Source: an uncultured archaeon (GTDB lineage: Archaea > Thermoproteota > Nitrososphaeria > Nitrososphaerales > Gagatemarchaeaceae). From it: a stretch of DNA of 64,000 bases. This document shows positions 46,496-64,000 of this stretch, piece by piece. The position numbers and the translations under genes are program-made. The notes under the pieces were generated by a model, which saw only the letters and a list, made by a program, of their open reading frames with translations, made no database searches and was not told the origin of the DNA. The stretch covers positions 512,001-576,000 of the forward strand of contig CAWCYD010000003.1 of the NCBI GenBank assembly GCA_963799775.1, in the 5' to 3' direction. Position 1 is the first letter of the stretch, and each line of letters begins with the position of its first letter.

Positions 46496-47551
46496 CTAGT
46501 TTCTTGAGCCTACTCTGATGGGCCCCATCTGGAAGCGCGACTGCGCCTGCTGGGACAAGAACGTGCTCTCGACGCCTGTGAGGACCACCATGACCCTCGC
46601 GGCACCGCGCATGTTCGGCTCGACGCGTGCTCCCCAGACGATCCTTGTGCTGGGGGGAAGTGACTTTGTCACAAGCTCTCCAGCCTTCGTGACCTCCTCG
46701 AGGCTTACGTCGTCTCCGCCGGAAACGTGTACAAGTACGCCCTTCGACCTTGTTACGTCCTTGATGTCGAGGAGCTGCCCGTCGATGGCCTGCCTGACAG
46801 CGACTTCAACCCTATCGGGTCCGGTCGCCTGGCCTACGCCTATCGCCGCTAGCCCTCTCCTTTCCATGATCGCCCTCAGGTCCGCGTAGTCGATGTTGAT
46901 GAGACTCGCTGTTGTGATTGTCTCGGTGATCCCCTTGATGAACTGGCCGACCAGCTCATTCGCGACGCCAAGCGCCTGCTGCAACGGGAGGTCTCCCGCT
47001 ACTTTCGAAAGCTTGGTGTTGTCGATCGCGACAACGGTGTCGCAGTACTCCCTGAGCCTCAGCAGGGCCTTCTTCGCGTTCTCGTATCGATAGCTCTCGA
47101 TCGAGAACGGGAGCGTTACCACTCCGATGGTCAAGCCGCCGTTGCCCCTCAGCTCTCTTGAAAGAGCCATGATGGCGCCGGTGCCCGTCCCTCCGCCAAG
47201 ACCTGCGCAAAGGAAGGTGATGTTCGACCCGTTTACCTCCTTCTTCAGCTCGGACATGCTCTCCATGGCGGCCCTCTCGCCGCGCTCTGGGTAGCCGCCG
47301 CAGCCTGTGCCGTGGGTGAGCTTCTCACCGATTAGGAGTCGTCTGTCCGCTTTGGTGATTCCGAGGTGTGCTGCATCTGTGTTGGCAGCGATGAGCTTGC
47401 CTCCCGCGACGCCGCGTTGCTTGATCCAAGAGACGATGTTGCTTCCAGCGCCTCCGAGACCAACGACCGCTACGTTTGGACGGGCTGCACGCATCGCTGC
47501 TTCGATGCGTTCTGCTTCCAAGAAGTCTGTGCTTTCCGTGGACAGTTCCAT
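46496..47551 (-). CDS. ftsZ: Cell division protein FtsZ
   Basis: VVGLGGAGSN, AANTDAAHL, AGLGGGTGTG, VTLPF..E, IDN.KL, LINIDYADLR, VWGAR, VVLTGV. Confidence 0.96.
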   Translation of the reverse strand: MELSTESTDFLEAERIEAAMRAARPNVAVVGLGGAGSNIVSWIKQRGVAGGKLIAANTDAAHLGITKADRRLLIGEKLTHGTGCGGYPERGERAAMESMSELKKEVNGSNITFLCAGLGGGTGTGAIMALSRELRGNGGLTIGVVTLPFSIESYRYENAKKALLRLREYCDTVVAIDNTKLSKVAGDLPLQQALGVANELVGQFIKGITETITTASLINIDYADLRAIMERRGLAAIGVGQATGPDRVEVAVRQAIDGQLLDIKDVTRSKGVLVHVSGGDDVSLEEVTKAGELVTKSLPPSTRIVWGARVEPNMRGAARVMVVLTGVESTFLSQQAQSRFQMGPIRVGSRN

Positions 47552-48028: not shown

Positions 48029-48430
48029 TCAACTTTGCCCTCCTAGCATCGACTTCGCTTTGGAGAGAATCCTCGAAGCCCTTTTCACAGCGTCGACCGC
48101 GTCTCCATCGCTCATCAGGTCCGGCTGGTACTCCGACCTGTTCTTCAGCTCGATCAGGCCGATGAACTGCTTGGATATTTCGCTGAATTCCAAAGGACTG
48201 ATCGAACCTTTTACTGAGGACAACGCGTCCTCATGCCTTCCTGCATGGCGCTTGCCACGATTAAAGACGGAAATCGCATCCAACGAATTGATGGCGCTAT
48301 GAATCGAATCTGTCACGGCGGCGTTATTCCTAGAACTGTCTCGAGCAAATTCTGCTACGGCTAACAGCTCTTCCGCCTTCTTGAGGAAGTTATGCGCAAG
48401 TTTCGCAGGGACAGGTCTACTCGTTTGCTG
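48029..48430 (-). CDS. HEPN-domain protein (start unresolved)
   Basis: Frame extends upstream as NFLKKAEEL..A..NAAV..IHSAINSLDA; RHEDA, KNRSEY, AVKRASRIL; follows the MNT gene. Confidence 0.8.
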   Translation of the reverse strand, partial: QQTSRPVPAKLAHNFLKKAEELLAVAEFARDSSRNNAAVTDSIHSAINSLDAISVFNRGKRHAGRHEDALSSVKGSISPLEFSEISKQFIGLIELKNRSEYQPDLMSDGDAVDAVKRASRILSKAKSMLGGQS

Positions 48431-49028
48431 ACAACTCTTTCAGGTCAGTTCCACATACGTGAATGTATTCCTCTAGAATCGACTTGGCAAGATCGCTCGA
48501 TGGGAACCGAAGGAATTCGGCCCTGGTCATGACAATCGGGGAAATGGCTGGTCCAAATTGGCCCTTGACTGCATCCCAGGCTCTTGAGGCGCAGCTTAAG
48601 GCGAGTTCTCTATCTGGCGTGATGATCAAGAGGTCGATATCGCTCTCGGGACGCTCGCTTCCTCTTGCGAAGCTGCCGAAGATTGCCACGGAGATTATCC
48701 TCTTGTCTTTGAAGAAGCGGGCTATGAGGGAGACGATTCTCTCAACGGTCGCTCTTTCCGCTGCGAACATCGGTTCGAGGATCGACCTGGTGACGTAGCT
48801 ATCCTTGTTTAGTGCGACTTGAAGCGCTCTGCCGACCGGTTGGATTGTCACGATGGATTTCTTCTCAAGCTTTCTTACTATCATTGAAACCTCAGGATGC
48901 GAGACGCCCGCGGTTCGCCCCAGCTCCCTGATTGTGAAGATTTTTCCCCTGTAAGTCGAGAGGGCCCTAAGTACACGCGCGTCCGCCTCGCCATTGAAGA
49001 TCTCAGGGATGTACTCGTGCAAGCTCAT
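48417..49028 (-). CDS. wHTH-fused minimal nucleotidyltransferase (MNT)
   Basis: FTIRELGRTAGVSHPEV HTH; IFGSFARG..ESDIDLLII. Confidence 0.88.
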   Translation of the reverse strand: MSLHEYIPEIFNGEADARVLRALSTYRGKIFTIRELGRTAGVSHPEVSMIVRKLEKKSIVTIQPVGRALQVALNKDSYVTRSILEPMFAAERATVERIVSLIARFFKDKRIISVAIFGSFARGSERPESDIDLLIITPDRELALSCASRAWDAVKGQFGPAISPIVMTRAEFLRFPSSDLAKSILEEYIHVCGTDLKELSANE

Positions 49029-50129: not shown

Positions 50130-50937
50130 TCATGCGATGATTCCTGCGATGACAAGGAAGAGAAGCGCTAGCGGCGCGAACACACCCGCCCAGTAAAGCT
50201 TGTTCCATCTCCATACCTTGGCGCCGTCCAGAGGCATAATCGGAAGCAAGTTGAAGAGCGCCAAGAAGATGTTGACGGGGAACCCGATGGCCCCAATATC
50301 ATAGACGATGCCGGTCCCCACGGATGCCACAACAAGGAAGAGGGCGGCGATCACTATGTTCGTCGCCGGTCCTGCCAGAGAGATAATCCCGTTCTGCCTC
50401 GGCGTGACGTTGTTGCCTTGGATGTAGGTCGCTCCCGGCGCTGCAAAGATGAAGCCCAAGGTAGAGGTGACCAGAGCCAACACTATGCCCATCACCCACA
50501 TCCGAAACTCCGCCCAGTACCCGTAGCGCTCCGCGGTGAACTTGTGCATGAGCTCGTGGAGGACAAAGCCGCTCCCCACCGCCACGAACGAGATCACGAA
50601 GAGGGTCGGAAGGTTATGGCCAATCACCGAGCTTCCCGCAAGTACGCCGCCGCTGTAGGCGATCGTGAATGCTAGAGCCAGGGCGGCCCAGGCGATCAAT
50701 ATGTCCCTGACTTCCTTCTGGGAGAATAAGTACGGATTGGCCCTCTGGGTAGAGTGCCCTGAGAACACGGACCCATCCCACGAACCGGTCATTCCTGGGC
50801 TCATCGCCCTCCTTCTAGTGAGGGTCACCTGTGCACGCGTGCGACTCGGGCAGCCTGTGCTCGGCGCAGAACGTCCCGCCGCAGTAGCTGCATGTGAAGG
50901 GAAGGTCATCTTCCTTCCCACAGTAGTCGCACTTCAA
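50130..50937 (-). CDS. AN1 zinc finger fused to an M50 site-2 protease (indel near 50822)
   Basis: KCDYCG..LPFTCSYCGGTFCAEHRLPESHAC, then HELMH, LAGPATN, FNLLPIMPLDG. Confidence 0.85.
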
Positions 50938-51424: not shown

Positions 51425-54400
51425 CTACGTGTGCTGGAAGGTCATGAACGCCGAGTTCACGTAGTCGGTCACGATTATGGTATAGTAACCAGCGGCAGCG
51501 GTGGGCACCTGGAACGTCGTCCCTGCAGGTATGTTGCCAGAACTGGTCATCGTGAACGTCTTGAGCGTCGTTATCACGCCCACCGAGTTCATCCATCCTA
51601 TCGTGGCCTTTGCGTTCGCGTTGAACCCGCACGGGCTAGTGCAGGTGACGGAGATGGTCGCGCTCGTGGCCCCTGCCTGCGGGGATGTGGCCGCGTTCGC
51701 GTTTGTGACGTATCCTGTAGGATAGGGGATGGTCGCGCCGAACAGGGTGTGGTCGCTGTAGATCCCGCTCAGCTCGAACGTGGCCTGGAACCCCGCTATC
51801 TCGTCCAGGAGGTCAGTCGTGGTCGCTAGCGGCGTCATCGAGCCGAAGTACATCGTCACCGGGGTGTCGTACGGCAGCGTCACAAAGTCCTGGCTGGAGT
51901 TGTAGGCGACGAGCCCCGTACCGTCGATGTTCACACCCTGTATTATGAAGAAGACCGTGTTCTCGAAGAACTCGTCCTCGTCCGTCCCCACGGTCAGCAC
52001 CGATGTCGGGAAGACGGTTATTGTGCGGTGCTCCGGGTCGAGGTTGGTGAAAGACTCGCTCCACTCCAGCTTTATGTTCTCGGGCACCGCCAGCGCCGGG
52101 TATCCTCCCACCTGCTGCCCGTTCTGGGGATTGACCAGCGCGCTCAAGGCGATGGCGGACTCCACCCAGGTCTCTGAAGTGCTAAGGGTAAAGGATGCTG
52201 TCTGAGCACCTGTCGCAGTAGTCAGCGACTCAGTGCACCCGTTCGAGGCGTCGCTCCCGTCACACCCACCGGATCCGGTCTTCACGCTGGTATAGCCGGT
52301 CCCGACGGTGTACGTGGTTGACGAGGAAAACGTTTCCACGCTGCCTATCATGATCGGGCCGCTGCCGGGCGGCGTGATCGAACCGACGGACGCTGATGTC
52401 GACCCTGTCGCTGAGCTCCCAGTCGAACTTTCCATTCCTGTAGTTGTGTATCCGGCGAGCTCGTAGATGGAGACGGTGCCTACCACCGTCGAGCCGAACG
52501 TCGCCTTTATCGAGTCGGTGCCTGAACCCGCCGCCGTAGCGTACCAGATGTAGGAGTAATAGGTCTGGGTCTTGGGGGCGAACGCCAGCGCGACCTCGAC
52601 CCAGGGAGAAATGGGGCTGATCGTCATCGGGACCGTGGTCGCGGAACCGACTCCGAGCTGGTATTCTCCGCACCCAGTCACCGATGGGGAACTGCACGTT
52701 CCGGACAAGGTGTAGCCTGACCCGACCGTGTAGCCGGTAGACGCACTCTCTGTGTTACCTATGACCACCGAGCTTGCGCTCGGGGTCATCGAGGTGACCG
52801 AGGTCGAACCAGAGTTCGAAAACGAGCTTCCGGTCTCGCTCAGGAGCCCTGTAGCCGTCACGCTGCTAAGCTCATAGATTGAGACCGACCCCGCCACAGA
52901 CTGCCCGAAGCTCGCCGAGATGGTGTCCGATCCGGTGCTCCCCGCCGTGGCGTACCACATGTAAGAATAGTACGTCACAGCTGTGGCCGGCGTGAATGAC
53001 ATGGCTACCTCGACCCATGGAGTTGAGGCGCTAATCGTGAACGGCACTGTCGTAGCGGACCCGAGGCCCGTGGCGTATTCGTTGCAGCCCTGGGAGGCGT
53101 GGCTCGCATCGCATCCTCCGGCACCTGTCGCCACCGTCGCGTAGCCGCCGCCAGCTGTGTACTCTGTCGAAGCCGAGCCTGTCTCCACGTTGCCTACCAC
53201 GAACGAGTTCGAGTTCGGCGTTATGGAGCTTACGCTAGAGGCTGTTGATCCAGCGGATGAACTGCCTGTCGACGAGAGTATGCCCGAGGTCGAGTACCCG
53301 GCTATCTCATAGATCGAGATCGAGCCGGCGACGGCCGAGGCGAAAGTCGCAGTCACTGTGTCGGCTGCGGAGCTCGATGCCGTCGCGTACCAGATGTATG
53401 ATTCGTACGTCGTTCCCCCGCTGAGCACGGAGAGGGAGGTGCCCACCACGAACGTGTCCCCGAGAGTGTCCGTCACAGAGGTGGGAGACGCCGTGCCCTG
53501 CACCAAAGTCCCCAATGAGGTGGACGGCATAACTCCATTCGGCGGGTAGGCCCGCGCTCGCCCCCAATTGTACTCCATGCTTGCAGTGGAGCCTGAGGCC
53601 GTGCTGAACAGAAAGCCAAGATAGAGGTGCCCCGCGGCAGAAATGGGGTTCACGTTCACGACGCCGCTGTAGCCGTTTGTCGTCGAGTATAGCTGGGGAG
53701 CAACGTACCCGCTGTACCACGTCGAGGTGGTCCCAGGGTAAGACACTGAACCGAACTGCCATGCGGTGGAAGCGCTTCCCTGAGGGTTGACGTCTGTGGT
53801 TGCCGCCCCGCCTGTCACGTAGTCTTGGTTGAAGTACGCGCTGTTGTAGCCGTTGTTGGTCCCTATCGCGTTCTGGACGCTTCCTGCTGCGGAATTGTCA
53901 ACCAGACCGGCGGTGCCCGAGTCCGTTCCCGTCTTGGAGTTCTCGAAGTTGCTCTCGACCACTGTCCCCGTCGTCGTCATCTGAGTGCTGAAGACGAGAG
54001 GCGTTTCACTGGTGCCGTAGCCCGTCAGCTTGATCGCGGAGATGGTGCCTGCGCCGTAGGTCACGCCTGTGGCCTGCGCCAGTGCGTAAGACTGGCCTGC
54101 GACGAGAGAGAAGCTACCGGTGGCGGTGTTGCCGTTGAAGTACGAGTTGAAGACGTTTGCTCCGTTGTCGTACTGGCCGTACGTCGAGGTCAGGTTGGGA
54201 GCCTCTCCCCAGTAGTTGTCGTCGAAGTTCACGTTCGTGGATTCGAAGACAAGATAGACCGTCAAAGTCCCTCCGTTGCCCGCAATCGAGGATGTGAGCT
54301 TCACCCATGCGTTCGCGGAGGTGGAGCTGGAGCCGCTGGTGCTGCAGGTGCTCGAGCACGACTCGAGCCACGCGTAGAGGGGAGTGTTGCAGGCGTCGTC

Positions 54401-57046
54401 TGCACAGAAGCGGACGTTCCCCAAGTTCGTCGCCTCGTATGTCGAATATGAAGAGGGGTTCCAAGACACGAGTTCCTGGAACGTGGTCGGGGTGGCCGTC
54501 GCTGGCGCCGCCTGGATGGCGTCCGCGGTCATCATCCAGTTGTCGGACGAGTCGGTGGCAGTTCCGAACGACTCGGTGACGGTCGTTTGGGTGGTTGTAA
54601 CCGTCTTGTATTGGACCGCGGCCTCTGAACCCCCGCTGCCGCCTGTATTCTTCTGGACTTGAATCAGGCTGTATCCGGCACCCCCTGTCTCCGTCGGAAA
54701 GCTTGAGTCAGAGGTCGTCGTGAGCCCTGCAAACCCAAGGATCATATCGTTCGCATTGCTCGTGGAGATGCCAGTCACGGAAGGTGTTCCCGCCGTTGTG
54801 GCCGTCGCGCTCTTCGGCAGCGCTACGTTCGCGTCCCACGGGGTCACTATGTTCGCGCCGTTTACGCCGAGCGCCACTATCGAGCAGTCGTCCGTGGACC
54901 CTGAAAGCGTGACCGTGATCTGCACTGAGGAGAGCGCCAAAGGAGAGTATGCCCACCAAACTTCCCCATCGGAGTACGGGGAGGAACTGATAGAGCTCGT
55001 CGACCTGTGTGCGAAGGACAGCCCGGTCGCAGTTACGCTGCTCACCGACCTGACCGAAGCGTGCGTGGTGTCCTCGTTGGCTACATAGACTAAGATGATG
55101 TCGTTCGAGTCCGCAGTCGAGAGGGTGACATGGCCCGAAGTGGCAGTGGAGAACGAACCAGTCGCCGAACCGTCAAGGAAATGACCCGGAGTTGCGCAAC
55201 TGGAGGAGGCGGCCTGGATCGCGTCCCCAATCATCGTCCAGTTGGTGTTGGCGACTCCGAACGACGCAGAGACTCCCGCTTGGGTCGAGCTTACCAGCTG
55301 ATACTCGGCCGCCACCTCGTCGGCACCAGTGCCTCCCGAGTTCACCTGTGTCTGTATCAGGGTGTATCCGGAGCCCGCGGTCTCGGTGGAAGGGGCACCT
55401 GCGCCCGGAACGGAGTCCCCGTTCACTCCGAACAGGATGTCTGCCGCGTTGCTCGTGGAGATGCCGCTCACCGACGGGGCTTGAGATGCGGTGTTGCTGT
55501 TGTAAGCGGGTATCGCGCCGTTGGTGTCCCAAGGGGTGCTCGTGTTTGCACCGTTCACTCCAAAGGCCACTATAGATGCGTCGTCGATGGAGCCCGTCAA
55601 GGTCACGGTTATCGAGGCGGATGACAGGGTCGATGATGCCAGCGCCCACCAGACCTCGGTGTCTTCATAGGGCGCAGAGTTCTGCGTGACTGCCGATCTG
55701 TTGTGGAAGGTGAGGCCTGTCGACGTCACCCCGCTCACGGTCCTTAGCACGCCGTTCGCGGTGTTCTCGTTGTTCACCGCGACCACTATGATGTCGTTCG
55801 TCTTGCCCGTGGTCAGCGTGACGGCACCCGTGTTCGTGCTCGAGAAGGAACCTGTGGCGCTCCCGTCGATGGATAGCGACGACGACAGCAACTGGCAGTT
55901 CGTTATGGTCACGGGCACGTAGTTGTATGGCGTCGTGGTTGGCCAGCCGAGCCCGTAGACGAGAGTATTGCCGTAGGTGACAGCCGAAGAGTACGCCAAG
56001 GCGCACGTCGCGGCGTTGCAGTTCGCAAGGTACCTATGCTGGACGACCGACGGAGACGGTGGGTTGTAGGTCACAGACTGCGACGCTCCCAGCGTGAACG
56101 CATCGTTGAAGGTGTCAGTGGGCGCAGAAGGGGCAGCCTCGTTGGCCCATCCCAACCCGAAGACCAGGGTGTCGCCCGATGATACCGCCGAAGAATAGGC
56201 CAGCCCGCACGCCGCCGCGTTGCAGTTCGAAGTGTATCTCTCCTGTACGAGCCCCGGGCTGTAGGTGTGTATGACGGAGTTCGAGGCGCCCAGGGTGAAG
56301 GTAGAACCGAGGGTGTCGGTCGGGGTGGATGGGGGACTCTGCCCATACCAACCTAGTGCGTAGAGCAACGTGTCCGCCACGGTCACCGCCGAGCCGTACG
56401 AGAGTGAGCATTGGTTCGAGTTGCAGTTCGCGGTGTAGCCTTTCTGCACTATCGACGTCGGCTCCGCGTTCAGGGCGTGCCACCTGAACTGGTTGAGGTT
56501 GACCACAACGGACTCGCTCGATGCTGCGTTGTTCACGTTGTTCGCGACCGTGGCCGGGTAGGTCTGGGAGAACGTGTTCCCCCGAGCCGTGAGCACTATC
56601 ACTTCGTCCACTCCGCTGACGTACAGATACCCGGTGTCGAATATCGCCGATCCGCTGCCTACGTTGACGACGCTCCATAGCGTAGGGGTCGTGTTCCCGC
56701 AGGACGCGGAGGCAGGCTGACCGACCCCGTCGCACTTCAAGAGAGCGCCCGTCTGAGATTGGACGTATACGGCAGTCATGTTGATGACAACGCCCGAAGT
56801 GTTATTCACGTAGAACCCTACGTCCCCGTTGGGTTCCAGAGTCGTAGTGACCTGGAGGCTCTCGGCAGAGGCTCCTTGCAGCTTGTTGGTTGCGCCGACG
56901 AGGTTCTGCGCGTAGGATGCGTTCAGGTTGTTCACGAAGATGAAGTACGACGTTCCGACGGTGAACAGGATCGCAAACATGATGATCGTCGCGATGATGC
57001 CTGCGATACCCCTCCTCCTGCGCCGTGCTATCGGTCCCATCTTCAT
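51425..57046 (-). CDS. Giant (1873 aa) type IV pilin-like adhesin with nested beta-sandwich repeats and a DUF2341-like domain
   Basis: Class III signal RRRRRG|IAGIIATIIMF; Ser/Thr/Gly-rich repeats; downstream of a pilin gene. Confidence 0.85.
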   Translation of the reverse strand: MKMGPIARRRRRGIAGIIATIIMFAILFTVGTSYFIFVNNLNASYAQNLVGATNKLQGASAESLQVTTTLEPNGDVGFYVNNTSGVVINMTAVYVQSQTGALLKCDGVGQPASASCGNTTPTLWSVVNVGSGSAIFDTGYLYVSGVDEVIVLTARGNTFSQTYPATVANNVNNAASSESVVVNLNQFRWHALNAEPTSIVQKGYTANCNSNQCSLSYGSAVTVADTLLYALGWYGQSPPSTPTDTLGSTFTLGASNSVIHTYSPGLVQERYTSNCNAAACGLAYSSAVSSGDTLVFGLGWANEAAPSAPTDTFNDAFTLGASQSVTYNPPSPSVVQHRYLANCNAATCALAYSSAVTYGNTLVYGLGWPTTTPYNYVPVTITNCQLLSSSLSIDGSATGSFSSTNTGAVTLTTGKTNDIIVVAVNNENTANGVLRTVSGVTSTGLTFHNRSAVTQNSAPYEDTEVWWALASSTLSSASITVTLTGSIDDASIVAFGVNGANTSTPWDTNGAIPAYNSNTASQAPSVSGISTSNAADILFGVNGDSVPGAGAPSTETAGSGYTLIQTQVNSGGTGADEVAAEYQLVSSTQAGVSASFGVANTNWTMIGDAIQAASSSCATPGHFLDGSATGSFSTATSGHVTLSTADSNDIILVYVANEDTTHASVRSVSSVTATGLSFAHRSTSSISSSPYSDGEVWWAYSPLALSSVQITVTLSGSTDDCSIVALGVNGANIVTPWDANVALPKSATATTAGTPSVTGISTSNANDMILGFAGLTTTSDSSFPTETGGAGYSLIQVQKNTGGSGGSEAAVQYKTVTTTQTTVTESFGTATDSSDNWMMTADAIQAAPATATPTTFQELVSWNPSSYSTYEATNLGNVRFCADDACNTPLYAWLESCSSTCSTSGSSSTSANAWVKLTSSIAGNGGTLTVYLVFESTNVNFDDNYWGEAPNLTSTYGQYDNGANVFNSYFNGNTATGSFSLVAGQSYALAQATGVTYGAGTISAIKLTGYGTSETPLVFSTQMTTTGTVVESNFENSKTGTDSGTAGLVDNSAAGSVQNAIGTNNGYNSAYFNQDYVTGGAATTDVNPQGSASTAWQFGSVSYPGTTSTWYSGYVAPQLYSTTNGYSGVVNVNPISAAGHLYLGFLFSTASGSTASMEYNWGRARAYPPNGVMPSTSLGTLVQGTASPTSVTDTLGDTFVVGTSLSVLSGGTTYESYIWYATASSSAADTVTATFASAVAGSISIYEIAGYSTSGILSSTGSSSAGSTASSVSSITPNSNSFVVGNVETGSASTEYTAGGGYATVATGAGGCDASHASQGCNEYATGLGSATTVPFTISASTPWVEVAMSFTPATAVTYYSYMWYATAGSTGSDTISASFGQSVAGSVSIYELSSVTATGLLSETGSSFSNSGSTSVTSMTPSASSVVIGNTESASTGYTVGSGYTLSGTCSSPSVTGCGEYQLGVGSATTVPMTISPISPWVEVALAFAPKTQTYYSYIWYATAAGSGTDSIKATFGSTVVGTVSIYELAGYTTTGMESSTGSSATGSTSASVGSITPPGSGPIMIGSVETFSSSTTYTVGTGYTSVKTGSGGCDGSDASNGCTESLTTATGAQTASFTLSTSETWVESAIALSALVNPQNGQQVGGYPALAVPENIKLEWSESFTNLDPEHRTITVFPTSVLTVGTDEDEFFENTVFFIIQGVNIDGTGLVAYNSSQDFVTLPYDTPVTMYFGSMTPLATTTDLLDEIAGFQATFELSGIYSDHTLFGATIPYPTGYVTNANAATSPQAGATSATISVTCTSPCGFNANAKATIGWMNSVGVITTLKTFTMTSSGNIPAGTTFQVPTAAAGYYTIIVTDYVNSAFMTFQHT

Positions 57047-57053
57047 TTCAGGG

Positions 57054-57650
57054 TCACCGGGTCGCCGAGTGGGTCACGACGTTGCCGTATAGTCCGGTGA
57101 CGACTACCGAGTAGGTCGTCCCCGAGACGAGGCTGTAGCCAAAGGACGGGCAGTTGGTGACCGTTCCTGGGATGGTCAACGTGTAGATCTGCGCGTCAGA
57201 GCTCTTCACGTCGGTCCCCGAGACGGTGGGAACCTCGTAGGCTGACGCAGCCGTCTTGCATTTTGTGGCAAGACTACTCGAGAGGTCGTACACGTAGTCC
57301 GTCTTGACGCCTTGGGCGTTGGTGGTGTAGTTGTAAAGGAGGTTGATGGTCCCCGACGGGCCGAAAAATCGAACAGAGTACGCCTGATACGTCAGCGCGC
57401 CCGTGTTGTAGACCCAGAAGGTCGTAGAGGTCGCGGCGCTGTAATATTGGTCGATTACGTTGAAATGTTCGGCAAGATAGTTGTTGGTTCCTACCACTCC
57501 GTTCTGCAGTGCCAGCTCGCTGACCGCCGATTGAGACCTGACAAAGCTCCAAGCGGCAGCGCCCGCGATCAGCGTCATAGCAATAGCTAGCATCGCCCCT
57601 ATTGTCTCTGATACGGCAACGCGCCTGTTCTTACGACTAGAATACCTCAA
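57054..57650 (-). CDS. Archaeal type IV pilin
   Basis: Class III signal KNRRVA|VSETIGAMLAIAMTLIAG; VYNTG motif. Confidence 0.85.
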   Translation of the reverse strand: MRYSSRKNRRVAVSETIGAMLAIAMTLIAGAAAWSFVRSQSAVSELALQNGVVGTNNYLAEHFNVIDQYYSAATSTTFWVYNTGALTYQAYSVRFFGPSGTINLLYNYTTNAQGVKTDYVYDLSSSLATKCKTAASAYEVPTVSGTDVKSSDAQIYTLTIPGTVTNCPSFGYSLVSGTTYSVVVTGLYGNVVTHSATR

Positions 57651-59076: not shown

Positions 59077-59185
59077 TGTCGAAGGGGAAGCCGTCGACGA
59101 GCTACTTGTCGTTTCTAGCCCAAACCCCCATGACAAACAGCTCGCCGTCTGGAAATCGGCTACGACCCGCCATCCGGGTATGTGC

Positions 59186-61812
59186 TTACTCCAGGGACGT
59201 GTCGAAGTCTTCCTCGCCGGAGCCGCCCTTGCCTCTGCGCCTCCTGACAAGGAATATGGCTGCCACCGCGCCGCCAGCGCCGCCGATGGGAAGAAGCAGC
59301 ATGGGGAAAGTGGTGAGCTGCTGCGTAAGCGTGGGCTTTGGCTTCAGAGCGTGCTTGGGTGGTGGAGGAAGGCTGACCTTCACCGTGAAATTGAGGGTCT
59401 TGGTGGAGAGACCATATGGGACTGTCACGGAAACGATAGCTGTGCCGACCTTGTTCGGCTTGTATATTGCGGTTGAGGAACCCTGAGCGTCTGTAGTTCC
59501 ATTCACCTGCGGTGTTCCTGTCGGGGCAGCCGTCGTGGTGGATCTTGTGGAGGTCGTGTTGGTCTCGGTCGTGCTGGTTGAGCTGTTGGAGGGAGGCGCT
59601 GCGAGGACCACGTTGCCGATGGATGCCTTCCAGAGCACCTGAGCGCCAGCATTGGGCAGGCCGTCCACTAGGAGGCTCACTGATATGACGGCCGATTGGT
59701 TCGTAAAGATCGCGGCGGGGCACTCCGGTAATAGTCGCCTGAGTTGGGAAGGGGAGGAACGTGACGGAGACGAGGGCGATCGCCAGGCCCGGAACAGAGA
59801 TAGTCAGCGTCGTGGTGCCTGGGACTCGCGGTTGCAGAGGCACGTACACAAAGTCTTGTCCGAGGCCAACCGAGGCGCTCGTCACTTGCGATATCACGGT
59901 GCTGTTCGAGGACGTAAGAGTCATGTTCATCGGAGCTCTTGCTCGCGCCGGATTCCCGGCTGAATCGGTGAGCTGGACGGCAATCGAGGAATAGAGATTG
60001 GAGGCTTTGGGGCTGAAGATGAGAACATTCAAGTCAGGCACCTCCGGCCGATATCGCGGATGGAGCAGGGATTACAGCCTCGACACCCACGGTGGAGCTT
60101 GTGGTGCCGCTCGTGAAGGAAGAGACAAGTGCGGTGACATTGGACCCGCCCTGCAGAAACCCTGTGGTGACGTTGAGGACAGCGAACGTCTGACCGGCCG
60201 GAATAACGGCATTGCTGACTCCGATGATCTCACTTTGAGACGACGTGAGGCTGACCGGGACGTCGGAGGCAGCGATCGCCGGATTGCCAAGGGCATCCTC
60301 CAACGAGAGTTCCAGTGCTGGATGTGACGCTCCGTCAGCAGGAAGATTCCCAGAGATTGCGCTAACGACAACTTGTGCTGGAACAGAACCATAGGTCTGA
60401 AGGGGAGTCTGGGCCGGCAGCATGTTCTGGGCAGAAGCAGTCAGCTGGGTTGTCCCGACTTGATAGGTTGAGGTGAAGGTGACAGCCGCCCAGTTTTGGC
60501 CCTTTGGAATAGCGAAAGTGATGGTGGTAAAGTTACCCACGCCTGTGATCGACGACGTGAGGGTGATCTCGGTCGGTCCAGTGTCGTTGACGGCGGGAGC
60601 CCCGCTGAGTACCGCCTGGAGCGAGACGACTACTGAGCTGTACGACCGATGATCGGCCAAGACTGGATTGGGCCCAGCATAAATCTGCAGCTGACAGCTT
60701 GACGATGGCCCAGTCTTGCAGTATGTGGGGCTGATTACGGTAGGTGAGGTCACCGTGATTGTGGCGAAGCTGGATTGCAATCCTGGAGAACTCGCGGTGA
60801 CTTCAGCCTCATCGGGGGTCGAACCCACTATCGATGTCGCAGTTACCGTGAAAGTAGCGATGGCGGTTATGTTTCCTTCCTTGATTGTCGTCGTTTCCGT
60901 TGCATTTACGACGGCAAGATCAGAGCTTCGAATCTGCACCTGGATATCCCTGGTTGCCCTGGTCGGGTTGCCGTTCGAGTCGGTGAGTGCCACTACAAGT
61001 CTTCCATTACAAGAGGTGACGTTGTTCGTGCATGCAGGCATGAAGCTAGGCTGTGCCAGCATCTTGAGTGTCAGAGGAGGAGAACCCAACACCGTTATGG
61101 CGACGGCTCCGGAACCGAAGCCCGGCGCAGTGGCTGTGATGAAGGCAGAACCGGGGACAAACCCGCTGGTGTAGTTCAGTTCCCGCAGATACTCTCCCTG
61201 CTTCATCACTGTGGATGCTGCTGTGACGTTCACGACGTTTGAGTTTGAAGAATAAAGCGATATGGGGACATCATCTATCGCCTTCGCCGGCAGTCCTAGA
61301 TCGTCCACCAGCTGAAGAACAACGAAACCAGTGCTGGCTGCGCTCGCTGGAACGATGTTCGGCACCGCGCTGACCACCAGGCGCGTCGGATAGCCGACCG
61401 CGACCACGGTGGTGACCGAGGTCGAAGCTGTCTGCAGACCTGTAGTCGTCGCCGTGATAGTTGTGACACCAGGAGTGTGCGTCGTGGTAAAGTTCGCAAC
61501 CGCATAAGCATCGTCGGCGGGTATCACGACCTGATTCGTCACCTTCCCCACGTTTGCGGTCGACGAAGTGAGAGAGATGTCGAGGTCGGTCAGCGCCACA
61601 GTAGGCCTGCCTGATCCGTCGACGACAGAAACGATGATTGCCGGGTAGGTGTTATTGTCGGCAGGTAGCTTCGAGGGTATTGGAGAGACAGCAAGGGATA
61701 GCGGAGCGCGTCCCGTGGCAGCTGATGTTGCATCTCCCATAGGAATCGTTCCCATTGCTATCAGAGAGGCCAGAAAGATGCAAATGCCAAACCTGACCGA
61801 ATTACTTCGCAA
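59186..61812 (-). CDS. Large surface protein with invasin/Ig-like repeats and C-terminal TM (3 fragments)
   Basis: Signal peptide; repeated LPAD..V.L.D..G.P..A..I.LTSS..G...ITA units; anchor AVAAIFLVRRRR. Confidence 0.75.
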
Positions 61813-61901
61813 CTATTTCGCAAAACAAGCGCTTATGATGATATTTAGACATGGTAGATGTCGTAGTCCAGATTTGGAATCCATCGCTAAGGGCGGTCTG
61901 G

Positions 61902-63627
61902 CTAGATCGCGTGGCCGAGGATGACGCCGGACAGGGCCACCATCATACCCCCGATGACCACGAGGGCCAGCGAGTGTTTGAAGCCGTCGGCTACCGTCCC
62001 ACCACCCATCTTCCCGGCGACGAATCCGATTACCCAGCCGTCGAAGATCGAGGCCGTCAGCAGTCCCTGTACTGCGTCGGGGGTGATGGTCAGCCCCGGC
62101 GTGGGTGCAGCGGTCCCGCCTAGCTTTATCGGTGTGGAGAGGAAGTAGACCATCATGAAGGTCGTGAGCGTGAGCATGATCCCCGCCATGTACACGACGA
62201 AGATGTACGACCTCAAAGCGGATTTCTTGTCTGACTCGAGCTCGTTCACCTTCTGGGTGAAGTCGGCCATCTGCGAGAAGCTCGTGACTGTTCCGCCGCC
62301 GACGTCGACCACTTCGACCATCAGCGTCCCGATCGCCATGGTGATCCAACTGTCGACAGATGACGCGAAGGTCTTGATGACTTTGATGATTGGAAGGCCC
62401 CGATGATATCTGGGCCCCCATCGTCTTGATTGACTTTGAGAGACGGCCGTAATTCTTGGACGCGAGCTGCTCGATGCTCCCTTCGGGAGAAAGACCGATC
62501 TTTCTCCCCTCCGCGACGTCACGGATAAAGTCAGGAAGGGCTTTCTCCAGTCCGTTCCTTTCCCTTGACTGCCTGAATGCCGCGATCGAGGGAATCACCA
62601 TTATCGAGCCGAGAGCAATGGACACATGGAGGCTCAGTTGAAGGGGCAGGGGCAGTAGGTAGATGACCAGCCCGATGGGGCAGCAGGCCAAGAACACATA
62701 GTACGGACTCTTGTTGAAGTACGGCTGTTTCGGCTGCGTCCCGTCGATGATGAAGATGAAGAGCGCGGATATTGCGGGGACTACGAGGTAAGAGAAGATG
62801 TAGAGGCTCTGCAATCCGCTGCTGTTGTGGGCCACCACTCCCTCTAGTTGGTAGAGGCTGAACAGAGTTATCCCCATGACGGCGGTGACCGTGAGATACG
62901 CCTCGGCGAGCGTTCCCACGGAGTCGGTGATCCTCCTCACTTTGGAGCTTCTTAGCTCCAATGTCTCTTTCAACTTGTTGTTCACGTAGTTCTTGACGTC
63001 GCCCCCTACCTTCAGCACCGTGGTGTATCCGTAAAGGAACTCTGCGAACGGCTTGTTGGGCATATGTCTTGCCGCGGTCTCGAACGCAGTGATAGGGTCG
63101 GTTCCGAAGACCTCTATGTCGACCAGCAACCTCTTCGCTTCCTTCGCGGACGCGGGAAATATCTTGGACATGCCGGAAATCCTACGAAGGGTCGAAACAG
63201 GTGAGACTCCCCCGCCTGAAAGGACGCCTAGGAATCCGATCAACATGGGGAGCTCGTTGTCTAGGGCTTGGGAGCGGGAGCTCTGTGATGCCTTCGGTGC
63301 GTTCCATATCATCACGAAGACGATCGGTGGGGCGAGGAAGGCGAAGTAGAGGTAGATTATGTGTAGTTCCATCCCGAGAATGATGCAGACTACGACCGGT
63401 ATCAAGGACAGGATGGTCGAGAAGAGCGCAAGGGAGACAAGGGCTTCAGGAGTAATTCGCATGCTCGATTTCAGTATCTGCTCCCTCATGTCCGGGGAGG
63501 ACTTCGCTATCTTCTTCCCCTGGGATCCGAAGATCTTGTAGGCTATCGCCGCCGTCCGGTCGAAGAGACCGAGCTTGGTGCCTCCGTTCTTCCTGCGGGC
63601 TGCGGTCTCGATCGCGACCTGGGTCAA
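61902..63627 (-). CDS. Type IV pilus membrane platform protein (TadC/ArlJ-like, T2SSF); frameshift near 62400
   Basis: LDNELP..GVSP, GTDPITAFE..P, LAEAY, LPDFIRDVAE..GLS, GFVAGKM..GFKH. Confidence 0.88.
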
Positions 63628-64000
63628 AGCTTGAACCCTTCGCGCATCTCTGCCTGGATGGCCAAGCCGGCCTTCCCAAGGCCCATCCCTTGCGCGATCG
63701 AACACCTCGCGCGAGTGGGCCCTGTACTCCTCGAAGACCAAGGAGAGCTCTCGAAAGTTCCGGATCTCCCTTTGTTGGGCCCACCGCATGACCATGCTCC
63801 TCCGTTCGATCTCCATCATCAGGTCGGGTAGGGTAGTCCCGGTGTCCCTTGCCAGCCTTGCGAGCTTGACGCTCGTCTTGTAAGGCGATGCGACCTGCTT
63901 GTCGGTCGCTGGATCCCACTTGAACATCCTGACGTAGTTTCCGACGCTGACAACCTCGTCGACCGAGAGAACCCTCCTCATCGTCTTGAAGCCACCGCCT
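63624..64000 (-). CDS. C-terminus of a type II/IV secretion ATPase (PilB/ArlI-like), truncated by the window edge
   Basis: RRVLSVDEV..FKWDPATD..EIERR..L.W..IRNF; corrected stop overlaps the TTG of the platform gene. Confidence 0.8.

Follow-up and report, generated by a model that had tools for sequence, protein, structure and literature searches.

A probable giant pilin-like surface protein built by nested domain insertion in a type IV pilus-like locus of a Nitrososphaerales-type archaeon

The DNA considered here is a stretch of 64,000 nucleotides from an uncultured archaeon (contig CAWCYD010000003.1 of assembly GCA_963799775.1, positions 512,001 to 576,000), and this whole stretch is referred to below as the window. 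On its minus strand, a single uninterrupted frame of 5.6 kb, 51425–57046, encodes a product of 1873 amino acid residues (P0001), the bulk of which is rich in Ser, Thr, Gly and Ala. In our opinion, it is quite probably a giant nested pilin-like surface protein belonging to a type IV pilus-like system of a Nitrososphaerales-type archaeon. The architecture A1[A2[A3[D[B1 B2]D]A3]A2]A1, with five levels and four nesting steps, had been proposed earlier from the nucleotide letters and translations (the sequence-only reading). It is now supported by the alignment of A with B, the counts of A halves, predicted contacts, a continuous D in homologues that carry no B, and the varying depth of the nest among homologues.

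In the proposed arrangement, the head H would be followed by three homologous all-beta domains of ~200 residues, A1–A3, each composed of two separated pieces. A2 would sit in a hairpin of A1, A3 in the equivalent hairpin of A2, and D in an earlier loop of A3; B1 and B2 would come after the first strand of D, and the chain would return through D, A3, A2 and A1 to the tail T. Since such a chain runs out and back, T should lie near H, and each junction should be crossed twice. The gene and its modules, listed from the N- to the C-terminus, are as follows.

51425..57046, minus strand: whole gene of the putative giant pilin-like surface protein P0001 (open frame and translation; homologue search)
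56456..57046, minus strand: H, residues 1–197, with a basic N-terminus, Gly and ~25 hydrophobic residues resembling a class III signal peptide, then a globular head (sequence)
56252..56455, minus strand: N-half of A1, residues 198–265 (self-similarity, module profile)
56051..56251, minus strand: N-half of A2, residues 266–332 (self-similarity, module profile)
55931..56050, minus strand: N-half of A3, residues 333–372, truncated at insertion site 1 after the LGW motif (self-similarity, module profile, alignment)
55871..55930, minus strand: first strand of D (YVPVTITN) and linker, residues 373–392 (homologue alignment)
55178..55870, minus strand: B1, residues 393–623, a complete all-beta domain, guest within D (self-similarity, module profile, AlphaFold2)
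54482..55177, minus strand: B2, residues 624–855, second B in tandem (self-similarity, module profile, AlphaFold2)
53498..54481, minus strand: body of D, residues 856–1183, DUF2341-related, ending in the RARAYPPNGVMP motif (module profile, PF10102 in homologues, phrog_7548)
53411..53497, minus strand: returning middle strand of A3, residues 1184–1212, the ..TDTLGDTF..G.S.SV segment (BLAST, alignment)
52976..53410, minus strand: C-half of A3, residues 1213–1357 (self-similarity, module profile, two-chain model)
52565..52975, minus strand: C-half of A2, residues 1358–1494 (self-similarity, module profile, two-chain model)
52127..52564, minus strand: C-half of A1, residues 1495–1640 (self-similarity, module profile, two-chain model)
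51428..52126, minus strand: T, residues 1641–1873, conserved C-terminal region adjoining H directly in members of depth 0 (module profile)

The internal repeats were found by comparing fragments of 120 residues with the whole protein, plain self-blastp having given the identity match only. The comparison revealed three N-halves of A at residues 198–265, 266–332 and 333–~382 (the best pair, 201–300 and 268–368, is 58% identical, E 2.9e-36), two B domains (393–623 and 624–855, ~55% identical, E to 6e-35) and three C-halves of A (1213–1357, 1358–1494 and 1495–1640, 53–57% identical, E to 6.5e-35). Because of these E-values, the similarity of the repeats is not a matter of chance. The same succession of N-halves, B domains and C-halves had been noted from the letters, a self dot-plot having been suggested as a check, and the module coordinates given at that time proved right to a few codons, residue 198 falling exactly on nucleotide 56455. 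It had also been pointed out that the segment P..PTDT....F..G.S.SV is present in the N-halves of A1 and A2, is absent from that of A3 and opens the first C-half. Residues 235–271 do match residues 1184–1217 (46% identical, E 1.1e-4); the segment missing from the N-half of A3 recurs after D, just ahead of the first C-half.

A search over 5.8 billion proteins gave 40 proteins of the query's size class at E <= 1e-3, the query included, and a further 60 shorter homologues. The 40 came from Nitrososphaerales or Thaumarchaeota metagenome-assembled genomes (MAGs), and because of these source names the carrier is assigned to a Nitrososphaerales-type lineage. The homologues were scanned with hidden Markov models (HMMs) made from the query's own modules H, A-N, B, D, A-C and T. 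Uninterrupted A domains, in which the N-half is followed by a four-residue turn and then by the C-half, were detected in P0013 (753–955), P0032 (420–622) and P0033 (395–598 and 640–836). These four natural A domains align with 36 B domains over 180 columns running through both halves (hhalign probability 96.8%, E 3e-10). Because the uninterrupted A aligns with B across both halves, the N-half and the C-half read as parts of a single domain of ~200 residues homologous to B, in agreement with the resemblance between joined A halves and the intact B domain claimed earlier.

The way in which the halves pair is indicated by their numbers and by the series of depths. Equal counts of N- and C-halves were found in 27 of the 28 complete A-bearing proteins, 16 of the 28 having three and 12 having four. 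The pattern of the query recurs in 27 further complete A-bearing homologues from independent metagenomes. The exception is P0033, in which one degenerate N-half was scored as a fragment; read by hand as N N n [N C] t [N C] C C C, it is balanced too. When proteins of four levels are compared with those of three, N1–N3 match N1–N3 and N4 is the extra unit, and on the other side C positions 2–4 match positions 1–3, position 1 being the extra one. On either side, then, it is the innermost unit that has been added, as would be expected of nesting and not of parallel pairing. Conservation by level is a weak test of pairing: level 1 is the least conserved in both halves, and levels 2 and 3 swap rank.

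A two-chain model (ESMFold2) of residues 198–392 with residues 1184–1640 was calculated from our own 16-row alignment along with three controls. Its interaction prediction score from aligned errors (ipSAE) was 0.79, 0.79 and 0.78, the best of the three controls giving 0.01; the ipSAE mark used as a benchmark is attained by 58 of 80 solved complexes and by 2 of 110 mismatched pairs. At least 94% of the contacts were common to the runs, and the predicted local distance difference test (pLDDT) of the partners was at least 84. With unrelated partners, the N-half chain fell to a pLDDT of 56 and the C-half chain to 75, compared with 84–86 and 91–92 in the complex. The contacts of least predicted error join N1 to C3 (227–231 and 250–252 to 1499–1503 and 1529), N2 to C2 (294–296 and 317–319 to 1364–1365 and 1392) and N3 to C1 (362–365 to 1217–1223 and 1246–1247). 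This is the reverse order expected by the sequence-only reading, and the model agrees here with three lines of evidence from the sequences, namely the half counts, the depth series and the innermost position of the extra unit.

The position of D and of its guests was traced in the 16-row alignment. The YVPVTITN strand stands directly after the LGW motif of A3 and, in the query, is separated from the body of D by 465 residues. This distance is 440–447 residues in seven rows with two B domains, 224–231 in three rows with one B and 2 residues in P0018, P0019 and P0024, which have no B, so that in these D is continuous. The strand is part of D, because the second D of P0012 and P0022, both of them D-D proteins, has its own I/VTITN strand ahead of it. 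Past the conserved end of D, A3 resumes with its missing strand and then the C-half. D is thus placed in A3 at site 1, an earlier loop than site 2, the hairpin at which A1 hosts A2 and A2 hosts A3. By hhalign alignment and the B1 model, site 1 corresponds to loop 36–44 of B1, and site 2 to loop 64–68, between strands 56–63 and 69–78. B itself serves as a host at residues 63–69, where D is inserted in P0164, P0201 and P0223, and B plus D in P0054–56 and P0109. Two of the features by which a nested adhesin architecture is recognised were found in this way: the host domain is predicted to be made of the segments flanking the guest (alignment and predicted contacts), and the guests are complete, independently folding and lodged in loops of the host (B1 model, loop mapping and continuous D).

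D of the query gave no match to PF10102 (DUF2341) at E <= 1. Its description as DUF2341-like, made earlier from the letters, holds nevertheless through the homologues: PF10102 matches the aligned region of P0020, a protein of the query's architecture, at E 5.1e-6 (27.3 bits vs a cut-off of 23.4), as well as P0012, P0038 and P0037 (30.2, 36.9 and 70.7 bits), and the D of the query matches these regions over its full length (module HMM). It also matches phrog_7548, a phage protein family, at E 1.9e-48 over profile positions 256–583 of 591. Relatives with D only were seen in Micrarchaeota, Bathyarchaeota and Nanoarchaeota MAGs, and also in the records of Streptomyces gamaensis, Planomonospora alba, Kribbella hippodromi, a Chitinophagales bacterium and a Binataceae bacterium.

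The module order of the query is shared by six other complete proteins of 46–65% identity and of different origin (P0003, P0015, P0020, P0021, P0025 and P0026). Homologues with another depth of nesting, the search for which had been proposed as a check, exist. At depth 0, T follows H directly in P0159, P0193 and P0208, proteins of ~425 residues; P0125 has the order H-B-T, and P0053, of depth 2, H-N-N-C-C-T. Depths of three and four occur, and the fragments P0035 and P0043 contain six and seven N-halves, so that depths of at least 6 and at least 7 are reached. Outside the genome of the carrier, the C-half array gave no match at E <= 1e-10 in 200 other genomes of the class (1 of 201), which shows only that the family is rare among the sampled species representatives. 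In a scan of genome contigs, long relatives were confined to four loci, L006–L009, which belong to three MAGs; most of the other retained loci match the D region only and belong mainly to Micrarchaeota, Bathyarchaeota and a few bacteria. One related MAG contains two loci (L008:7986-18003 and L009:4473-14810), each with two giant paralogues in tandem and with differing cargo: 3N-B-B-D-3C stands beside 4N-B-4C at L008, and 3N(D)-N-B-4C beside a broken D-bearing second gene at L009. At both loci, one gene of the tandem pair is split into two frames.

These data modify the view, expressed in the sequence-only reading, that such proteins grow by insertion into loops rather than by tandem duplication. 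Insertion is the organising principle because the guests occupy two fixed loops. At the same time, tandem duplication is present as B1-B2 in the query and as D-D in P0002, P0012 and P0022. In P0035, a fragment whose C-side is cut off, three adjacent N-halves at residues 300–494 are 87–92% identical vs 45–75% for most other pairs, which suggests a recent expansion within its N-half array. This case also suggests that arrays of halves may expand like ordinary repeats, provided that the opposite side changes to match; a half left without a partner in a permissive hairpin could then be a tolerated intermediate.

The A/B fold would offer two permissive loops as sockets, relatives keeping the outer shells and swapping or multiplying the inner cargo. 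We tentatively propose, with slightly less than even confidence, that A/B is a natural socket domain and that the whole forms a recursive, telescopic scaffold on a pilin, of depth 0 to at least 7, in which the innermost cargo (B, B-B, D, D-D or D plus A plus B) may be exchanged; the half-arrays on the two sides of the cargo would then have to expand in step. If this is true, the mode of growth would differ both from tandem repeat expansion and from single domain insertion.

AlphaFold2 modelling of B1 alone, using a 40-row alignment, gave a confident structure of 15 strands (mean pLDDT 95.3, predicted template modelling score 0.92). Among the predicted viral structures of BFVD, it has 28 matches at E <= 0.001, the best with E 3.3e-8 and a template modelling (TM) score of 0.77; they are mostly unnamed tailed-phage proteins, two being named mycobacteriophage minor tail protein. 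Atlas gave unnamed, mostly viral clusters with a top score of 0.96. Searches of PHROGs with B1, B2 and P0205 returned nothing, and phmmer with the whole protein against PDB sequences gave 0 matches at E <= 1. A profile of 962 positions, covering also flanking A-C and T columns, matched 3296 proteins at E <= 0.001 among 1.84 billion representatives. Many of the matches listed cover the B part only; among the matches are B domains arrayed in tandem after a bacterial-type signal peptide, as well as proteins of ~230 residues that stand alone. A/B is a large unannotated domain family that has no Pfam model and is common to pilins of archaea, secreted proteins of bacteria and phage tail-like proteins. 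A Pfam scan of the 1873-residue query found no family at E <= 1; no meaningful Pfam match was obtained with its first 100 residues, with T or with the members of depth 0, and T has no Pfam family.

A single B was also noticed in the same genome on a pilin-like protein of 398 residues (L002:1255-2451, minus strand, equal to C3:633519-634715). Its B is 56% identical to residues 632–852 of the giant protein; therefore, the B module is displayed on a pilin of ordinary size as well.

The connection with pili is based on the N-terminus and on the locus. Class III signal peptides have a basic stretch, Gly or Ala at position –1 and then a hydrophobic helix of ~20 residues. The N-terminus of the giant protein shows an R-rich stretch, G and then IAGIIATIIMFAILF..., a motif kept across the homologues. 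A T2SSE-type ATPase and a T2SSF-type platform protein, by which a pilin system is recognised, are encoded alongside. In the direction of transcription, the genes of this strand are ordered as Pilin_N gene, T2SSE ATPase, T2SSF, Ig-like (immunoglobulin-like) protein, small pilin-like protein, giant gene and Peptidase_M50, the Pilin_N gene and the T2SSE ATPase (PF00437) lying just upstream, outside the window. The order is intact at L007 and L008 (ATPase of 397 residues, platform of 577–578 residues, large protein, small open reading frame and giant gene), and L009 keeps it from the large protein onward; L008 and L009 also have the downstream M50 peptidase gene. This gene order places the giant gene in a type IV pilus-like locus that is conserved in Nitrososphaerales-type archaea. 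The earlier designation of the product as a type IV pilus subunit is, thus, supported by its context only: the signal-peptide-like N-terminus, ATPase, platform and small pilins speak for it, and the lack of any pilin HMM above its threshold does not.

It is conceivable that the class III signal peptide is cut and that the N-terminal helix anchors the protein in the pilus. Because of its size, the protein would most likely be a minor, rare or tip subunit. The nested A shells may act as a spacer, and the innermost D and B may be the binding part, by analogy with the B fold in predicted phage tail proteins and with the adhesin role proposed for DUF2341 proteins, and also with the adhesin-like proteins of archaeal type IV filament loci; because the B fold has no PDB match, a binding function of B is a matter of analogy only. 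In the sequence-only reading, the doubled chain would form a probably tension-resistant stalk displaying B1 and B2 at the tip of the subunit. If only the N-terminus is anchored, the force of a pull on the cargo would be borne by the strands on the N-side of each shell, and the double crossing would not by itself guarantee strength.

Several points weigh against this picture. The score of the two-chain complex is one model's own confidence obtained with our own alignment, and homologous halves may have been joined into a beta-sandwich in the model, in part because they resemble complete A/B domains. AlphaFold2 with residues 333–1357 (13 rows) gave a mean pLDDT of 48.9, D and both pieces of A3 being below 50 and only B1 and B2 confident (B2, at model residues ~290–515, had pLDDT of ~60–85); this poor model of D and A3 therefore neither independently supports nor contradicts the insertion of D in A3 or of B in D. 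The B1 model has no PDB match by Foldseek at E <= 0.001. Its best VIA row reaches Z 5.4 (4jdn_A, root-mean-square deviation 3.1, 104 residues aligned) and is followed by many tied jelly-roll, TNF-like and pilin-domain rows, so that no fold family can be assigned; Gram-positive pilin domains occur only among these weak rows, as does SpaA (3htl_X) with Z 5.0, a deviation of 3.7 and 121 residues aligned. On the pilus side, TIGR02537 (archaellin/type IV pilin N-terminal) gave E 0.074 on the first residues (12.6 bits vs a cut-off of 20), no pilin HMM attains its threshold on the giant protein and Pfam Pilin_N does not match it. The only Peptidase_A24 match (PF01478) in the genome, which is 81.67% complete, has E 2.8e-5 and 25.7 bits vs a cut-off of 26.5. 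In addition, apparent frame breaks affect three places in this genome, namely the platform gene, the region of the ATPase and the surface-protein gene nearby, and they may reflect assembly indel errors or decaying machinery.

The model of residues 333–1357 was also submitted to structural searches. The Foldseek search of PDB was discarded as meaningless (no row at E <= 0.001, TM <= 0.10), and the VIA-wide search was uninformative with a best Z of 5.3.

Some of these points would fit a protein in which the nest is real and which is no filament subunit. Its pilin-like N-terminus would only anchor it in the membrane or in a short pseudopilus, and it would serve for surface binding or as a spacer, much as the sugar-binding proteins of the Sulfolobus bindosome, which have class III signal peptides. 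We consider this explanation unlikely, yet deserving of attention: besides the failure of pilin HMMs, 1873 residues should be far above what packing in a filament body allows, and the giant gene is intact while neighbouring machinery genes look frame-broken. Against it stand the conserved order with ATPase, platform and small pilins, the intact state of these genes in relatives and the existence of H-T members of ~425 residues, which is the size of ordinary pilins. Much less credible is the view that the N- and C-halves are unrelated families of small tandem repeats folding alone, with B and D merely lying between two arrays. The linear sequence does read as two tandem arrays, the adjacent N-halves of P0035 are of the kind that ordinary repeat expansion leaves and AlphaFold2 provided no confident fold of A3. 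However, such families would not explain an uninterrupted A that aligns end to end with B, nor the balance of halves in 27 of 28 proteins with the extra unit innermost on both sides, nor the ipSAE of the complex relative to its controls, the mirror order of the contacts and the fall of pLDDT with unrelated partners. We regard this view as very improbable.

An artefact of assembly or gene calling in a repeat-rich region of a MAG could be suspected from the apparent frameshifts nearby and from the incomplete genome of three contigs, and it appears to us the least probable explanation of all, scarcely worth entertaining. The frame of 5.6 kb is unbroken, the same module order is found in six complete proteins sharing 46–65% identity, and the repeats are only ~55% identical and, therefore, too diverged to collapse or misjoin. 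Accordingly, a nested pilin-like surface protein of a type IV pilus-like system is the reading preferred here.

As a rule, nested domain insertion goes only one or two steps deep, and the domains that it joins are of different kinds. In the protein described here, members of a single family are inserted into one another again and again, and close relatives, as well as tandem paralogues, differ in depth and cargo. This provides a natural series for studying how discontinuous domains fold, how a nest grows when each step needs matching additions at two distant places of a gene, and whether the depth of nesting determines how far a binding module on a pilus reaches or how it behaves mechanically. 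The two permissive loops make a possible display scaffold for protein engineering. For soil Nitrososphaeria, the family points to a variable surface-attachment organelle.

Bacterial flagellin, with the order D0[D1[D2[D3]]], and the giant flagellins are also nested filament subunits. Like them, the giant protein has a chain that runs out and back, conserved outer parts and a hypervariable, expandable centre that would be displayed outside. The filament core of flagellin is made by its two termini together, and its nested units differ from each other; the giant protein is pilin-like at the N-terminus only, has a separate T after the nest and has shells that are homologous copies.

Another parallel is RrgA, the pilus-1 tip adhesin of Streptococcus pneumoniae, in which, according to PMC5333627, D3 is inserted in D2, and D2/D3 in D1. 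It is pilus-borne, with stalk domains made of N- and C-terminal pieces and the binding domain innermost, as would be the case for the giant protein. RrgA is a bacterial, sortase-linked protein with isopeptide bonds and two nesting steps of unlike domains; the giant protein, on the contrary, has four nesting steps, a single domain supplying three of the hosts as copies, a pilin-like helix at the N-terminus for attachment and other folds. Makarova et al. 2016 (PMC4858521) proposed that the large DUF2341 proteins encoded in pilus loci of archaea (arCOG03508 and others) are tip adhesins, and adhesin-like proteins were described in archaeal type IV filament loci, with a 'System 1' in methanogens and Nitrososphaerota (PMC13705601). 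The protein studied here resembles them in its large size, DUF2341-related domain, location in an archaeal pilus locus and proposed adhesin role. In the accessible text of both papers, domain content is given and not the nested A/B architecture. Modular type IV pilins, such as PilB of Streptococcus sanguinis with its grafted module (bioRxiv 10.1101/2021.01.27.428410), similarly have a pilin moiety bearing a bulky module, for which a role in adhesion was proposed or shown; as far as the accessible part of this source goes, PilB-type pilins bear one appended module, and the giant protein has ~1440 residues of recursive insertions between head and tail.

In the literature, as covered by main texts and not supplements, neither self-insertion of one domain family to a depth of at least three, nor variable depth among relatives, nor the A/B family was found. 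The remark in the sequence-only reading that no pilin with such a depth of nesting had been described is, therefore, upheld in these limits as to depth, and it does not extend to nesting itself, which is known from RrgA and flagellin. Nested insertion and DUF2341 pilus proteins were already known; no published description was found of recursive self-nesting in which the cargo can be exchanged.

The genome of the carrier (G000) has 2.47 Mb. AmoA (PF12942) gave no match in it, and the controls also remained without a match, so the search is uninformative on ammonia oxidation. The other genes around the giant gene in the window are as follows.

61813..63981, minus strand: T2SSF-type platform gene with an apparent frameshift (PF00482 E 5.5e-11)
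59160..61812, minus strand: gene of a large surface protein with Ig-like repeats, apparently frame-broken (frames 60034-61812, 59160-60041 and 59186-59680)
57054..57650, minus strand: small pilin-like gene, 198 residues, ending 8 nucleotides before the giant gene (Pilin_N E 0.0034, below the cut-off)
50130-50921, minus strand: Peptidase_M50 gene, downstream
48417-49028, minus strand: MarR/TrmB-type helix-turn-helix fused to a nucleotidyltransferase domain, downstream
46496-47551, minus strand: FtsZ/tubulin-family gene, downstream

In the platform gene, the second T2SSF domain continues in another frame (61902-62522, E 1.1e-6), the switch being near 62395-62405 at a G-run. The ATPase region, in the part of the genome immediately upstream of the window (L004), is read in the frames L004:2-1624 and L004:1275-2249, both on the minus strand; in the 541-residue frame, the T2SSE match covers profile positions 103–256 only, and this frame runs without a stop into the platform frame (window 63000-64000), the relatives having a separate ATPase of 397 residues. 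The C-terminal part of the Ig-like surface protein, in frame 59186-59680, has a hydrophobic anchor followed by arginines. At the position of this gene, L007 and L008 have a gene of 759–894 residues that has no Pfam match, and upstream of the giant gene of L009 there is a 674-residue gene with a weak Big_1 match. L009 also encodes a similar N-terminus at the position of the small pilin.

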